This document shows positions 32,596 to 58,080 of a stretch of DNA of 64,000 nt, piece after piece. This DNA comes from Pecten maximus. Taxonomy: Eukaryota. The stretch's first letter is position 1. The number at the start of each line of letters is the position of its first letter. A program made the position numbers and the translations under genes. The DNA lies in assembly GCF_902652985.1 (NCBI RefSeq), contig NC_047019.1:42160001-42224000 (forward strand), written 5' to 3'. The notes beneath the pieces are model-generated. The model saw only the letters and a list, made by a program, of their open reading frames with translations. It searched no databases and was not told the origin of the DNA.

Positions 32596-33230
32596 GTAAG
32601 TTATATACCAATACCTTATAGTCACTGTTAGCAAGATTGACAAGTCACATCAGTTATATTATATACCATTAATAAAAATAACTTGCTATTTATTATCAAG
32701 TTCTCACAGATCGTTGACATTTGTCGTTAATAATTTCATTTGTTTGATTTTCCTTTTTTTTGATAATTTTAACGATTATTTATGAGCCTAATGATGTTTT
32801 CATTGTTGATTGGCTATTGAGGATGAGAAAATAACTATTTAAACCTATTATAGCTGATGAGAAAATAACTATTTAAACCTATTATAGTTTACCAATTGAT
32901 GATAATTGTATTTGTATTTTTAGTGTCATCATAGTGTCATAATAACATGAGTAAAACTCTATTTATAGTAATAAGTTGTGATTACCTGTTCCTACCATCA
33001 AAATACAATGAAATATACCTGCTGTTGCTTACAGTATATTGATCAACATATTTCATACATACCTGGTCAATTTCTGCTGTTACTAGAGCAGTACTGTTGT
33101 GATGTATCCAGTATATATAGATTTTAACTGTGATTAATTGTGAGTACAGACATCCTAATATCTTTATGATTTCTGCTATTGTCTATTAGACGTGTACATA
33201 TTTTAACGATGGATTTTCTTTACTTTACAG

Positions 33231-36056
33231 AACTCCTACAGAATCGTAAACAGAGTATTGAGATGCCAGTGCAGAATGGATTTACGGACAGTACTAGTGA
33301 AAGGTCTGATAGTCCGCAGTGTTCACTTCCTAGTCGGACATTACCGAATGATACATCAGTGGCGAATCTAACACCAGTAACTAACGGCGATCAGATTCCT
33401 CCACCTGTGCCCCCACGGATACCAATAGTGTCGAGTAGTTCGGCACTGGGAATGAATCAAACCACACCAATGAGCAAACAGAATATGATGGAGACTTCGC
33501 AAATTAACCACCACCATCAAATGGTCAACCAACAGCTGCCATCACGACAGTTGAACATGATTCCGTCGCCCGGTGACATGCAGCAAATAATTCCGGGACA
33601 ACCACATATCAAACACAGTACCATGTTAAATCAACTACATCATCATCAACAGCAGCAGGCGCAGGGCCTAACACACGCGGGGCATATCACACCGCAACGC
33701 AGGAGTCCTGTCAACAGTCTGGGTCACCAGCCTGTCATTGTACAGAGACCTACAGGACAGTTGGTAACAATATCTAATCCTAGTGGAATAGGCTCTGGTG
33801 GTAAAGGGCAGATAACTATCCGTTATTCCAAACCACCTCCACCGTATAGTCAGCATCCGGTGAGTAGATCACCAGTAGTTAACATATCAGGTCAAGGTCA
33901 TACGGAACAGTCGCACCTTATTTCATCCACCGTTCCTCCAGTGTATCGGCCAACTCCACGGTACGAGACTCAGATCACTGTTAATAACACAGTACCAGGT
34001 TCTGGATCAGATAATGTTCTCAAAAAGACTGGTCTTTCTCCAGCACAATCAATGGCATACTGTACTAAACCAGAAATTGTGTCTGAGACAGTAAAGAGTA
34101 AAAAAGTGACTAAACCTAAACCTATGACGGCCACAATACCTATGTCCCCGGCTCAGTCACCAGGGCCAAATTATGTTTCTCATTCACAGGGCACCAGCTA
34201 TGTAACATCTCAGTCTTCTGGGTCTAACTACGTCACCGCACAGTCTCGTGGTACAAACTTTGTTTCACAGTCACCAGGTACAAATTATGTGACATCACAG
34301 TCGCCAGGTACAAATTATGTGACATCACAGGCGCCAGGTACAAATTATGTGACATCACAGGCGCCTGGTACAAATTATGTGACATCACAGGCGCCAGGTA
34401 CAAATTATGTGACATCACAGGCGCCAGGTACAAATTATGTGACATCACAATCGCCTGGTACAAATTATGTGTCGTCTTATGAAGCAAAAGTAGGAGTGCC
34501 AAGCCCTCGACCTCCAACTCCTGAAGTTCAGATAAAAATCCAACATCAACCCCATATTGTGCAACAGAAATCTTCAATGATGCGTCCTGATTCCATGCAC
34601 CCCCATATGGCAGGTCAAGGCCATGGGGGCCAGCCCCAGATTCAAATAAATCTTGGACAGCATGGCCCCCACTTTGCTCGTAGTGTTGTGGTACAGCGGA
34701 GCCAGGTACCATATGAATATATCAGACGTCCTTTGGACACTCCTGGGTCGACCCCAAGGTCAGACTCCCCCATATCTTTAAGGGGCACAAACCAGTCACC
34801 CATGTCAACCACATCAACAAGTAATTCAGATATTCCAGATAGACTTTCAGATAAAATCCCTGACAAACCCCCACCCCCTTACCCTGGAAAACAAAACAAA
34901 CAGGCTCATTTACCCCCACATGTGCAAATAGTGACTCCGTACGCTCATCAGCATCCCCCTTCATCTCACCCACAGTTACAAATGAATTACCCTGTTCACT
35001 ATGGTCAAATTCAAGGGCAAAATCAGGAACAGCCACCGCTGCCACCAAGAGTGCCTCTACATAGAATTTCTCCAGAATCTTCAGACACACCTCCACCTGT
35101 GCCAACAAAAGGAACAGTAGTGTCACCCCCACCTCTTCCTCCCCATTCCACTGGCAAACCGTCGAGGGGGAGCTCACAAAAAGTTAATGGTGCAAGTAAA
35201 AATGAACAAAATGATGAAACCGATGAAACAACGTCAACAGTTTCTGACGCAAGCAGTTGTAGTCACTCTGAAAAAACAAGGTGTACATCTCCAATGCCGG
35301 AACGAAAAGCTGATGCAAAGGAAAAGGACTCTTTACGTGGTGAAACTTTAGTGAGAAACTATTCACCGCAAGCATTTAAATTTTATATGGAACAACATAT
35401 AGAAAATGTGTTAAAATCTCACAAGGAGCGAGAAAAAAGACGATTACAGTTAGAACGTGAAATGTCGAAAGTGGGACTGTCTGATGAAGCTCAGCACCAA
35501 ATGAGGCGCATGCTTCATCAGAAAGAATCCAACTACATCCGATTAAAAAGAGCAAAAATGGATAAATCTATGTTTGAAAAAATTAATTCGTTAGGCGTCG
35601 GTGCATTTGGAGAAGTGGCACTTGTACAAAAGAAAGAGGTCAATCAACTGTATGCCATGAAAATGTTACGGAAGAGTGATGTGTTAAAACGTAACCAAGT
35701 GGCTCACGTCAAGGCGGAGCGTGATATATTGGCGGAGGCAGACAATGAGTGGGTGGTGAAACTCTACTACTCCTTCCAAGATCGTGATAATCTGTACTTT
35801 GTGATGGACTATGTACCAGGCGGAGACCTTATGGGTCTTCTTATAAAAATGGAAATATTCGACGAACCTCTTGCTGTCTTCTATATTGCAGAATTAGTGC
35901 TAGCCATTGAAAGTGTGCATAAGATGGGGTTCATTCACAGAGACATCAAACCGGATAATATTTTAATTGACAAAGATGGACACATGAAACTAACAGACTT
36001 TGGATTATGTACCGGATTTCGATGGACACACAATTCCAAGTACTACCAGCCACAAG
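33231..36056 (+). CDS. LATS1: LATS/Warts kinase, large exon: P/Q/S-rich region, PPxY motifs, LCD2-like segment, MOB1-binding NTR and kinase subdomains I-VII
   Basis: Lies within ORF 33179-36121. Contains RNYSPQAFKFYMEQHIENVLK...QKESNYIRLKRAKM (MOB-binding region), LGVGAFGEV, YAMK, VAHVKAERDILAEADNEWVVKLYYSFQD, HRDIKPDN and DFGLCTGFRWTHNSKYYQ, all LATS-diagnostic. Acceptor ttttctttactttacag|; donor CAAG|GTACGT (phase 1). Confidence 0.97.
34157..34477 (+). repeat. Coding 30-bp minisatellite, 11 units of (S/A)PGTNYVTSQ
   Basis: Unit ccaggtacaaattatgtgacatcacag(g/t)cg. Four diverged units are followed by seven near-perfect ones, all in frame within the LATS exon. Confidence 0.95.
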
Positions 36057-36578
36057 GTACGTATATAACTCAGATTATACCTGTCCTGCACTGTAATGTA
36101 ATAGTATGTTCCTTAACTTGAGATTTTTCCATTAGAAAACATTATTGGAATAAAAGAATTCTTAGTCGATGACCTTTCCTTAAATTGTGTAATGTCTTTT
36201 GGAATAATTCAGTGTTTTCCTATGGACAATTTTCAATTAAGAAATGTTGATAAAACTGTCGCCCATTGAATTTAAAATTTAGAAAATCTACAGATTGGAA
36301 AATATACCTGGAAAAACCGATAGATTTCAGGTGACAAGTTAATTGTTAAGGAAAAATGTATTGGAGGCAGCAAATTGGAGAGAAAAGACAGAGCGATGCA
36401 AGTACCAGTAGGGACATTTTGGCTGCTTTTGAGATTTCCAATTCTTGTATGCATTAGTCAAGTATAGTTTTTGTAATAGTAATGAATCAGTTCTAGTAGG
36501 ACTATTTTAGGTGTCAGAATATCGTAACTTGTGTCATTGATCATGATTAAACCTTGTCAATGATGCTGCAGACTTAGA

Positions 36579-48701: not shown

Positions 48702-49572
<871 letters not shown>

Positions 49573-50872: not shown

Positions 50873-51614
50873 ATTAGTAGCTGTCAGAAAGGCACTTTGA
50901 ACAGTACATTGACAAAATAAAACAAATGATTAATCTTTAAATCTAATTCTATGATGTGTAAAAGGTACAACATTTTGACCTTAATAAAGGGCAGGTCACA
51001 CATGCTGATGGAGAATACCCAACATTGACTGTGGTATAAAGATGTTTAACCTCAACAAAGGCTTTAAGGCTTGGCTAAGCTTTGTTCTGTACTAAGTGAC
51101 CGACATACTACCGCCTACCTTATACCACAGCGTATCACTACCCCCTCTATACCCTCACCAAATTACTGCTTTCTTCTCCTCTCCGCTCACAAAAATATGC
51201 TCAATAAACCAAAGAGATTGTGAAGGGCACCTTATTTCTGTCCACATCACCATGAAAACAAAGCTATGGTATTGTAATTGATACAGGTAATTAGTTTATA
51301 CACATGGCCGCTGAAAATCAATCGGGAGGAACATTGTAGTATTTGTGGCCGCTTAATGATTTTTATCTAATTAATATTAGAGATTCTGTCGTCAGCTGCT
51401 GAAGTTAAAGTACAAAGGATTATATTTCAAACCACCGTCAGGATTTAGGCTCAGGTAGTCGATTTGTATGGACCAGGAAATAGCTGTCTCTGTTATCATC
51501 TGGCTAAGTCACATGGATTTTCTGGGCAGGTGTCAAATTAATTACAAAAGTTTGTTAATAATTTAATTTCCTTTCTAGCAGCATTTGGAGTTGTTGAGGA
51601 TAATATTTTATTAA

Positions 51615-54340
51615 CTGAGTTATATATCACTGACATTGTCACACAAATACACTGTGTTATATATCACTGACATTGTCACACAAATACACTGAGTTATATA
51701 TCACCGACATTGGACATCACAAATACACTGTGTTATATATCACTGACATCGCCACACAAATACACTGTGTTATATATCGCTGACATTGGACATCACAAAT
51801 ACACTGTGTTATATATCACTGACATCAGACATCACAAATACACTGTGTTATATATCACTGACATCGCCACACAAATACACTGTGTTATATATCACTGACA
51901 TCGGACATCACAAATACACTGTGTTATATATCACTGACATCGGACATCACAAATACACTGTGTTATATATCACCGACATCGCCACACAAATACACCGAGT
52001 TATATATCACTGACATTGCCACACAAATACACTGTGTTATATATCACTGACATTGTCACACAAATACACTGTGTTATATATCACTGACATCGGACATCAC
52101 AAATACACTGAGTTATATATCACTGACATTGTCACACAAATACACTGTGTTATATATCACTGACATTGCCACACAAATATACTGTGTTATATATCACTGA
52201 CATCACCACACAAATACACTGTGTTATATATCACTGACATTGCCACACAAAAACACTGTGTTATATATCACTGACATCGGACATCACAAATACACCGAGT
52301 TATATATCACTGACATCGGACATCACAAATACACTGTGTTATATATCACCGACACCGCCACACAAATACACTGAGTTATATATCACTGACATTGGACATC
52401 ACAAATACACTGTGTTATATATCACTGACATCGGACATCACAAATACACTGTGTTATATATCACCGACACCGCCACACAAATACACTGAGATATATATTA
52501 CTGACATCGGACATCACAAATACATCGAGTTATATATCACTGACATCGCCACACAAATACACTGTGTTATATATCACCGACATCGGACATCACAAATACA
52601 CTGTGTTATATATCACTGACATCGGACATCACAAATACACTGTGTTATATATCACTGACATCGCCACACAAATACACCGAGTTATATATCACTGACATCG
52701 CCACACAAATACACTGTGTTATATATCACTGACACTGCCACACAAATATACTGTGTTATATATCACTGACATCGGACATCACAAATACACTGTGTTATAT
52801 ATCACTGACATCGGACATCACAAATACACCGTGTTATATATCACTGACATCGGACATCACAAATACACTGTGTTATATATCACTGACACTGCCACACAAA
52901 TACACTGTGTTATATATCACTGACATCGGACATCACAAATACACTGTGTTATATATCACTGACATCGGACATCACAAATACACTGTGTTATATATCACCG
53001 ACACCGCCACACAAATACACCGAGTTATATATCACTGACATCGCCACACAAATACACTGTGTTATATATCACTGACACTGCCACACAAATATACTGTTAT
53101 ATATCACTGACATCGGACATCACAAATACACTGTGTTATATATCACTGACATTGGACATCACAAATACACTGTGTTATATATCACTGACATCACCACACA
53201 AATACACTGTGTTATATATCACTGACATCACCACACAAATACACTGTGTTATATATCACTGACATTGCCACACAAATACACCGAGTTATATATCACTGAC
53301 ATCGGACATCACAAATATACTGTGTTATATATCACTGACATCGCCACACAAATACACTGTGTTATATATCACTGACATCGCCACACAAATACACTGTGTT
53401 ATATATCACTGACATCGGACATCACAAATACACTGTGTTATATATCACTGACATTGGACATCACAAATACACTGTGTTATATATCACTGACATCACCACA
53501 CAAATACACTGTGTTATATATCACTGACATTGCCACACAAATACACCGAGTTATATATCACTGACATCGGACATTACAAATATACTGTGTTATATATCAC
53601 TGACATCGCCACACAAATACACTGTGTTATATATCACTGACATCGCCACACAAATACACTGTGTTATATATCACTGACATCGGACATCACAAATACACTG
53701 TGTTATATATCACTGACATTGGACATCACAAATACACTGTGTTATATATCACTGACATCACCACACAAATACACTGAGTTATATATCACTGACATCACCA
53801 CACAAATACACTGTGTTATATATCACTGACATCACCACACAAATACATAGAGGATTTCTAACAGTGTCTTCAGTAATACCAAATATATTTCACGAGTGGG
53901 GCTAATATTTTGATATTTTTCACGAGTGCGCAGCACGAGTGAAAAATATCAAAATATTAGCCACACGAGTGAAATATATTTGGTTTTACTGAAGACACTG
54001 TTAGATATTCTGTTTATTACATTTTTTATCAACGAAAACCCTACGCTGTATGCTAACTAGGACTACAGCGATAATTTGTAAACAAAAAAAGTAGTTTCCC
54101 CTGTCCAGGTGCTGACATATATGTTGGGCTTTCTGATTGGTCAATTATTTTGGTATTTTCTAATCATTAATTTGATTGGTCAAATCAGCAAAAGTGATAT
54201 TTTTCACTAGTGAAAAATATGATATTCTTCACTAGTGAAAAATATCACTTTTATAGAATGAATAATTTTTGATATTTCACTGGTAAAAATGTAATAAACT
54301 GTGTTATATACCACTGACATTGCCACACAAATACACTGTG
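51615..54340. repeat. 37/39-bp minisatellite (~58 copies), interrupted at 53848-54298
   Basis: Unit cacaaatacactgtgttatatatcactgacat(cgcca/cggacat); the array resumes in register at 54299. Confidence 0.96.
53848..54298. mobile_element. 451-bp non-autonomous palindromic insertion without TIR or TSD (Crypton-like candidate)
   Basis: Splits a satellite unit at aaataca^ctgtg with no duplication. Contains a 147-nt hairpin (53858-54004), two TTCACTAGTGAA palindromes and two TGATTGGTCAA motifs, and ends in AATAAA. Confidence 0.8.
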
Positions 54341-54455
54341 ACAGCTGTATTATCAGTGATCAGTGTTCCCTGGGTATTGATCTACATCACAGTTTTATAA
54401 AGCTACTCTTGTTTCACAGTTAATGAGGAAAGAAATATTACTGGGAGTTGTTCGA

Positions 54456-57615: not shown

Positions 57616-58080
57616 GTCATCAATTGGAAACAGAATTTGAAAATTCCAAGGGAGGCCAATCTGTCGCGTGCAGCAGAGGATCTGATCTTAAAACTGTGTT
57701 GCGACCAAGAGACGCGTTTAGGTGCTAAAGGTGCGGCTGAGATCAAGGAGCATCCATTCTTCTACTCACTGAACTTTGAGGGGTTACGGAAACAGACATC
57801 TCTGTATAAACCCAAAATTAGTCATCCCACTGACACATCAAACTTTGACCCCATTGACCCTGAAAGAGTCAGGGAAAGTGACCCAGACGAGGAAATTAAA
57901 AAACCAGACCATCCGGTCAACGGAAAACATCCTGAGCATGCATTTTTCGAGTTCACATTCCGCAGGTTTTTTGATGATGGTGGACATCCATATCCCATGA
58001 AAAACTGGGAGCATGGTATTGAGAAAGAAAGTGACACTGCAAAGGAATCCGAGTCATCTAATGCTCCAGTCTACGTATGA
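57616..58080 (+). CDS. LATS1: LATS/Warts last coding exon: subdomain XI and AGC C-terminal tail with hydrophobic motif
   Basis: Encodes VINWKQNLKIP...HPTDTSNFDP...HPEHAFFEFTFRRFFDD (Hippo/MST target Thr in FTF) and ends APVYV-TGA, the LATS-type xVYV terminus. Acceptor tttttatttgtag|GTC, phase 0. Confidence 0.96.
   Translation, partial: VINWKQNLKIPREANLSRAAEDLILKLCCDQETRLGAKGAAEIKEHPFFYSLNFEGLRKQTSLYKPKISHPTDTSNFDPIDPERVRESDPDEEIKKPDHPVNGKHPEHAFFEFTFRRFFDDGGHPYPMKNWEHGIEKESDTAKESESSNAPVYV

Follow-up and report, generated by a model that had tools for sequence, protein, structure and literature searches.

Animal Cryptons were described by Kojima and Jurka in 2011 as elements without terminal repeats, with their termini listed as not determined (PMC3212892, in part). 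A CryptonA paper of 2026 reports poorly conserved terminal repeats, and the words "single-strand", "stem" and "palindrom" do not occur in its text (PMC13465315). In Chlamydomonas, Crypton transposition is regarded as more complex than the classical model (10.1101/2022.05.23.493040, in part). Among bacterial systems, CTX-phi carries the sites attP1 (12 bp) and attP2 (5-7 bp), which are unusable apart and work when folded, with homology required only beside one cut (PMC4246890, in part). For folded DNA in general, the stability of GCGNAGC and the strong stacking of tandem GA are documented (PMC13037366 and PMC8163305, both in part). The literature search, with Repbase, Dfam, subscription papers and bioRxiv supplements outside its scope, returned no account of the Crypton end design described below. 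The end anatomy is taken to be new, whereas the CryptonA class and its short derivatives were already known.

The element, its family and its target site

In the window (the whole 64,000-nt stretch of Pecten maximus DNA that was analysed), an insert of 451 bases interrupts one unit of a 37-bp satellite without adding to or removing any of the unit's own bases (table 1). The preliminary description had claimed an insertion without duplication or deletion at this satellite, and the unit is indeed intact around the insert. The insertion at this locus is accounted for by the satellite, since its unit is a near-perfect target which is found 39 times upstream. The limits first given, 53848..54298, enclose a real insertion but lie one base too far to the right. 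The A at 53847 is invariant (88/88 copies) and the A at 54298 is variable (82/88; Fisher p=0.03), which favours 53847 and 54297 as the ends of the element.

Table 1. Parts of the inserted element, its target and the host satellite, in positions of the window.
Feature	Position	Strand	Basis or remark
Host 37-bp satellite	51614..54343	.	39 upstream units with the same near-consensus target
Target, left half: arm AAATA and core base 1	53841..53846	+	Flank profile, 88 copies
Non-autonomous CryptonA element, 451 bp, whole	53847..54297	+ (the GA strand)	Ends fixed in 88 copies, common to the 3.2-kb parents
Element's own 7-base core after the putative cut, ATAGAGG	53847..53853	+	99/100 listed left ends
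Long hairpin	53854..54008	+	Folding and pairing
Outer tandem GA	53894..53895	+	Faces GA at 53967-53968 (CGAG/CGAG)
Apex: inner tandem GA/GA and GCGCAGC mini-hairpin (GCA loop 53930-53932)	53924..53938	+	
Internal complementary region	54009..54026	+	Pairs with the right terminus and, in the end-joined strand, with the junction (circular fold)
Join left by the parent's internal deletion, ~2.75 kb lost	54070..54078	+	Match to the L116 and L117 ends
What is left of the parental sequence upstream of the recombinase gene	54079..54297	-	Maps to L116:4861-5063, first ATG 4807
3′ palindrome, TTCACTAGTGAA twice	54190..54252	.	Single in the parent
Right terminus	54285..54297	+	Gives the end-to-end junction its left arm
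Target, right half: core bases 2-8 and arm TATAT (profile TATTT)	54298..54309	+	Flank profile, 88 copies

Exons of a protein-kinase gene lie on both sides of the satellite (+ strand; Pkinase at 33170-36118 and 49333-49572, Pkinase_C at 57616-58077). This host gene (33170-58077, +) includes one 983-codon open exon, and its product, with the Pkinase_C domain, is a kinase of the AGC type. Tandem repeats make up ~55% of the window, and each intron of the kinase gene has its own satellite.

The hairpin, its GCA cap and the four copies of CACGAGTG facing each other as GA mismatches, all named in the preliminary description, are present in the sequence. In detail, 53857/8 is paired with 54004/5, the GCA loop is closed by a C-G pair within the GCGCAGC at 53928, and the folding z-score is -19.9 against 100 shuffles. 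The direct copies of CACGAGTG, at 53891, 53921, 53934 and 53964, set GA opposite GA at 53924-5/53937-8 and 53894-5/53967-8. The apex pattern gave 1,457 matches versus 32 for its control. Directly after the hairpin, 54013-54026 is an inverted copy of the element's right terminus; the term "TIR-less" fits the termini, but there is this inverted copy of one of them inside. In the 3′ part, the twofold TTCACTAGTGAA palindrome had also been noted; it is found at 54203 and 54228 and was produced by a 25-bp duplication, the parent being without it. Two CCAAT-like boxes on the minus strand of 54079..54297 are likely parts of a promoter.

The left-end pattern had at least 1,289 exact matches, i.e., intact left ends, in the P. 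maximus genome and none in the control. The genome holds 1,834 candidate copies, and the 40 best scored were all full length at 98-100%. The single-copy result which the preliminary description had named as counting against it did not appear, and the family of the 451-bp element is a young, real family of non-autonomous CryptonA.

The profile of target and ends was built from 134 loci, which gave 88 distinct copies with both ends after 18 left-end-only copies were dropped. A fixed-length target duplication is absent: repeats of 5, 7 and 9 nt occur in 0/88, of 6 nt in three and of 4 nt in ten, and the 4-nt and 6-nt flank repeats follow AT runs. At locus L009, a contig of another sample (run X4, record 17) lacks exactly 451 nt without a gap. 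This copy is polymorphic with a clean empty site, as read from the coordinates of one contig at one locus. The alignment of ends and empty sites proposed earlier thus shows no duplication in the 88 copies and a clean empty allele at L009. At the same locus, run X14 gave a second organism label with both family ends and little of the middle, which suggests an independent deletion derivative in a related species.

To the left of the cut, the flanks read A(49) A(66) T(62) A(83) T(56), in counts out of 88; to the right they read A(82) T(50), five weak positions and T(70) A(50) T(59) T(41) T(42). This profile points to the target AAATA-8 nt-TATTT, with inverted arms around an 8-base core that would be cut after core base 1. 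Inverted arms around eight bases are also the spacing of loxP. The target core agrees with the element core at A in 82, T in 50, A in 39, G in 17, A in 27 and G in 24 of the 88 copies, so that the match is down to background by position 4. The earlier comparison of the end AATAAA with the target AATACA retains a partial likeness (AATA.A), but only the bases beside the cut match the element.

With a pattern that did not specify the core, 99 of 100 left ends listed (of 1,002) kept the element core with at most one change, and a target-like core was found in none of these 100. A double exchange of the Tn916 type is disfavoured by this retention of the element's own core at the left ends. The right junction recreates a target. 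The end-plus-start motif was met 19 times (control 0), 14 of them being exactly the predicted junction, and in the 12 loci read the partners at such junctions were unequal where both were family members.

Head-to-tail arrays arise where an insertion has occurred at the right junction of other Crypton copies (L091:6244, L238, L242, L248, L142 and L135), and they also form across families. At L245:1678-2716, a tandem array has grown out of 40 bp of the hairpin's 3′ arm, so that the element has itself given rise to a satellite.

The parent element and its recombinase

In the DUF3504 search, the best 150 of 327 candidates were scored and 60 stretches were fetched around matches. At L116 and L117, element bases 1-232 (92-96% identity) and 224-452 (87%) are the ends of a 3.2-kb unit. 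Six parent copies, at ≥96% in the gene region, carry the ends of the 451-bp element. Between the shared ends, on the strand opposite to the GA strand, lies a predicted gene with three exons, a model which rests on open frames and GT/AG sites. The recombinase motifs FGMRP, KTRT, YSVR, GHRN and NNY (R, K, xxR, H, Y) are spread across these exons, and exon 1 of L116 scores 54.5 bits for DUF3504 versus a cut-off of 29.7. The 3.2-kb parent contains no other long frame (longest <115 aa) and no reverse transcriptase frame.

Because a parent with the same two ends carries a DUF3504 recombinase gene, the 451-bp element is classified as a non-autonomous CryptonA. By sequence comparison, it is identified as a gene-less, internally deleted derivative of a 3.2-kb CryptonA in the same genome, the assignment to CryptonA resting on DUF3504. 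Longer copies with a tyrosine recombinase had been called for, and the 3.2-kb parents at L116 and L117 answer to this. The earlier view of a non-autonomous element of Crypton type rather than a Helitron agrees with the parent gene and with the ATAG...ATAA ends.

All parent copies read are defective in some way, and Tyr takes the place of the first catalytic His in 5/5 copies read at that exon end; an unseen copy or a relative may therefore be the active source. This His position is the least conserved of the catalytic set, with His in 79/98 relatives. Single-exon relatives pass the Phage_integrase cut-off as well; one of them, L107 (intact, 536 aa), shares the first nine bases and passes both this and the DUF3504 cut-off. 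For its structure model (pLDDT 94, from 98 sequences), QRICH1 ranks first by E-value and Cre by fold, with a TM of 0.65-0.68 versus Cre and 0.34 versus IntI; the parent's recombinase is predicted to be Cre-like. RNA contigs cover the parent at a low and patchy level, and no splice joint on the parent was found among the joints listed.

Two other candidates for the parent were rejected. In L056/L091, the short copy next to a DUF3504 gene was inserted separately, at the end of that element, and in L104 the short element within a Crypton belongs to a different family.

Hairpins and joined ends across recombinase families

A GA or TC hairpin is located within 2.6 kb at 44/66 recombinase loci, 22/66 being without one. 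The nearest GA hairpin is placed at the 5′ end of the GA strand at 40 of these 44 loci, and four break the rule. By family, the strand rule holds in 18/19, with the gene in sense in six and antisense in 12. The hairpin therefore follows the geometry of the DNA and not transcription, and a role at the RNA level is ruled out, the gene being on either strand. A match to the far end at ≥13/14 bases was detected in 25/41 recombinase-linked hairpins, compared with 1/41 in each of two controls; the remaining 16/41 had no 13/14 match to the far end within 1.5 kb.

Among 23 family representatives (~14 unrelated sequence groups), 44/49 of the 2x2 loops are GA/GA, although the choice of hairpins with at least one GA or TC loop inflates this share and not the agreement in loop, context and position. 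The YGAR context is found in 42 of the 44. Apex loops are GNA/GNNA or pyrimidine-rich on the GA strand in 23/23 representatives, and loop type and GA fall on the same strand in all 23. Tandem GA prefers the YGAR context, and CTTG and TTTA loops are also stable. Across families YGAR is kept and a longer motif is not, and in 12/15 families the GA loop lies 47-52 nt from the junction. For the 451-bp element's hairpin the computed energy is -67.4 kcal/mol on the GA strand versus -64.9 on the other; the GA strand is the lower in 22/23 representatives, the strand differences being a few kcal/mol. Conservation of the GA/GA mismatches and of the loop with a strand bias, which the preliminary description had singled out for examination, extends in this way across families.

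Some recombinase-coding copies (L060, L102 and L033) have the hairpin interior flipped to TC/TC or collapsed. Members of family B (L064, L078, L083, L085 and L087) often lie head-to-head in an inverted copy of their own right end region. Family C, of 1.19 kb (L104:5681-6873; L063; L080), shows the same end design with a gene-like interior and no recombinase frame. Some DUF3504 loci (L109:3481-3649, L095, L096 and L105) either gave no hairpin or have one with a GAA loop that lacks tandem GA; these are possibly other subgroups or domesticated genes.

After insertion, changes are found at 30/595 GA sites (5.0%) versus 142/10,837 stem sites (1.3%). The GA-site changes are mostly conversions to TC from the opposite arm; these occur in 13/86 copies, each pattern once and on several subfamily backgrounds, and the intact GA pattern is common to 51 of the 86. 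Mutation erases the GA pairs and amplification keeps them. The test of selection within the family is weak if few masters were active, and the strand rule across families is the stronger argument. Stem "covariation" is not counted as evidence because the hairpin arms convert each other. The internal complement has five changes of 1,378, a low rate that AT content or conversion could cause.

In the circular fold, the joined ends form a duplex with the internal complement in which the junction strand is longer by two bases. The same 2-nt excess was obtained in 15 families, a rule which is partly circular outside family A (that of the 451-bp element), X1 and those with head-to-tail junctions. The boundaries were all placed manually; those of A and X1 are firm, and the others rely on 2-6 copies, tandem junctions or analogy. 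In family B, the difference is -2 in a copy with a duplicated hairpin and +2 in another copy. In family A, the arms are nine bases apart on the junction strand, seven on the complement and eight in the targets. Neither duplex site therefore fits, and the folded hybrid averages the target spacing.

Proposed mechanism, alternatives and known systems

We consider it probable that the element is moved in trans by the DUF3504 tyrosine recombinase acting on one folded strand. The GA strand would fold when single-stranded, and the hairpin together with the stem of the internal complement and the right terminus would bring both ends together. One strand exchange would then release a single-stranded circle, in which the junction and the internal complement would rebuild a two-armed site with a 9/7 core, compared with 8/8 in the target. 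With a double-stranded AAATA-8 nt-TATTT, the recombinase would exchange one strand pair by a cut after core base 1; a single exchange at this point would need a match only at the first 1-3 core bases. Replication or repair would resolve the junction with no duplication. The tandem G.A pairs and the GNA or pyrimidine-rich loops would stabilise the hairpin of the GA strand and weaken that of the other strand. A folded substrate had been suggested in the preliminary description and now has independent anatomical support. While the identity of the element is read from its sequence, the folded-strand route is what we infer, as likely, from the end anatomy.

Retention of the core on one side also fits a double-stranded circle with one exchange, as in VGJ-phi. 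A CryptonA that integrates such a circle, by the Goodwin model or by the single exchange, with the hairpin and the complement as accessory protein-binding sites in duplex or cruciform form, is unlikely, though it deserves serious weight. It is the published Crypton model, CACnnGTG is itself a dyad, the one-sided retention agrees with a single exchange on duplex DNA, and CryptonF in Chlamydomonas shows clean excisions and short donor-target identity (10.1101/2022.05.23.493040, in part). Against it stand the arms of the duplex junction, nine apart, and those of the internal site, seven, when the target has eight; nor does duplex binding predict the upkeep of YGAR only or the 23/23 agreement of loop and GA strand. 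Folding could also serve copy-out or second-strand priming only, the internal complement being a splint as in DIRS and a double-stranded circle being integrated. This is somewhat less likely again, although the DIRS ICR is essential and complementary to both ends (PMC7192593, in part), GNA mini-hairpins are found at phage single-strand origins (PMC13037366, in part) and bacterial SE circularise one strand with tyrosine recombinases (PMC9345347, in part). The DIRS ICR is exact, whereas in all families measured the complement here falls 2 nt short, a feature more in keeping with a recombination site than with a splint.

The two remaining explanations carry very little weight. That the hairpin is a functionless, self-perpetuating palindrome, with its mismatches as accidents of descent, agrees with the frequent conversion of one arm by the other; conversion, however, removes or flips GA, and yet at least 14 unrelated hairpins keep strand, context and often distance, so this reading is disfavoured and very improbable. 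An HUH enzyme (Helitron, Replitron or IS200/605 type) as the mover is scarcely credible: a hairpin near an end, no TSD and an AT-rich target would suit it, but TC...CTRR ends are missing, the parent codes for a DUF3504 recombinase with no other long frame, and the target is a dyad.

For animal CryptonA as a group, we hold the chances to be even that they move as a folded single-stranded circle, with a recombination site formed only after folding (9/7 versus 8/8), sheared G.A as the strand selector and a Cre-like enzyme, this being the ancestral activity behind the domesticated ZMYM and QRICH1. If the folded-strand route is true, a eukaryotic recombinase would place folded single-stranded DNA in loosely defined, AT-rich targets without duplicating them, a bacterial mechanism would be extended to animals, and a tool for scar-free insertion could follow. 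The exact ends, the target profile of 88 insertions, the named parent and the structural rule from many families together specify which substrates a first biochemical test should use. Curators can also apply the rule "hairpin, then inverted far terminus" to locate Crypton boundaries.

Helitrons begin with 5′ TC and end with 3′ CTRR; here, the ends are ATAG...ATAA and the partner is DUF3504, not a Rep-helicase. Of the two likenesses drawn at the outset, that to attC stands and is joined by CTX-phi attP(+), but IS200/605 is less apt, given a dyad target with two arms and an enzyme that does not belong to the HUH nucleases. DIRS, also tyrosine-recombinase elements, have an internal sequence complementary to the joined ends, but they are retroelements with an exact 88-nt ICR, in contrast to ~18 nt, 2 nt short, and no reverse transcriptase frame here (PMC7192593, in part). 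The reverse transcriptase/RNase H frame and the inverted long terminal repeats that mark DIRS were not found in the 3.2-kb parent. SE elements likewise have a tyrosine recombinase and copy out one strand; they are bacterial, with four genes and a 6-bp spacer from the donor flank, whereas the element core is fixed here (PMC9345347, in part).

Integron attC with IntI is alike in the structure kept and the sequence left free, in strand selection and in an asymmetric unpaired spacer. Its extrahelical bases are single, in place of the tandem G.A pairs, and the enzyme model here is closer to Cre than to IntI (PMC2727003, in part). CTX-phi attP(+), used with XerC/dif, has unequal core lengths that fold into one and tandem insertions at the regenerated site, a parallel that would hold by analogy; it depends on host recombinases, one chromosomal target and a phage-supplied strand, compared with an element-encoded enzyme and loose targets (PMC4246890, in part). 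The 4-6-bp terminal direct repeats of CryptonF and CryptonS are absent, the partial likeness AATA.A being between the right end and the target. Animal CryptonA are alike in the DUF3504-type sole gene and in having neither TIR nor TSD, and their short derivatives keep both ends and far outnumber the parent, as here (PMC3212892, in part). The hairpin, the internal complement, the strand rule and the 8-bp target dyad are found here and not in the consulted part of the account of Kojima and Jurka (PMC3212892).
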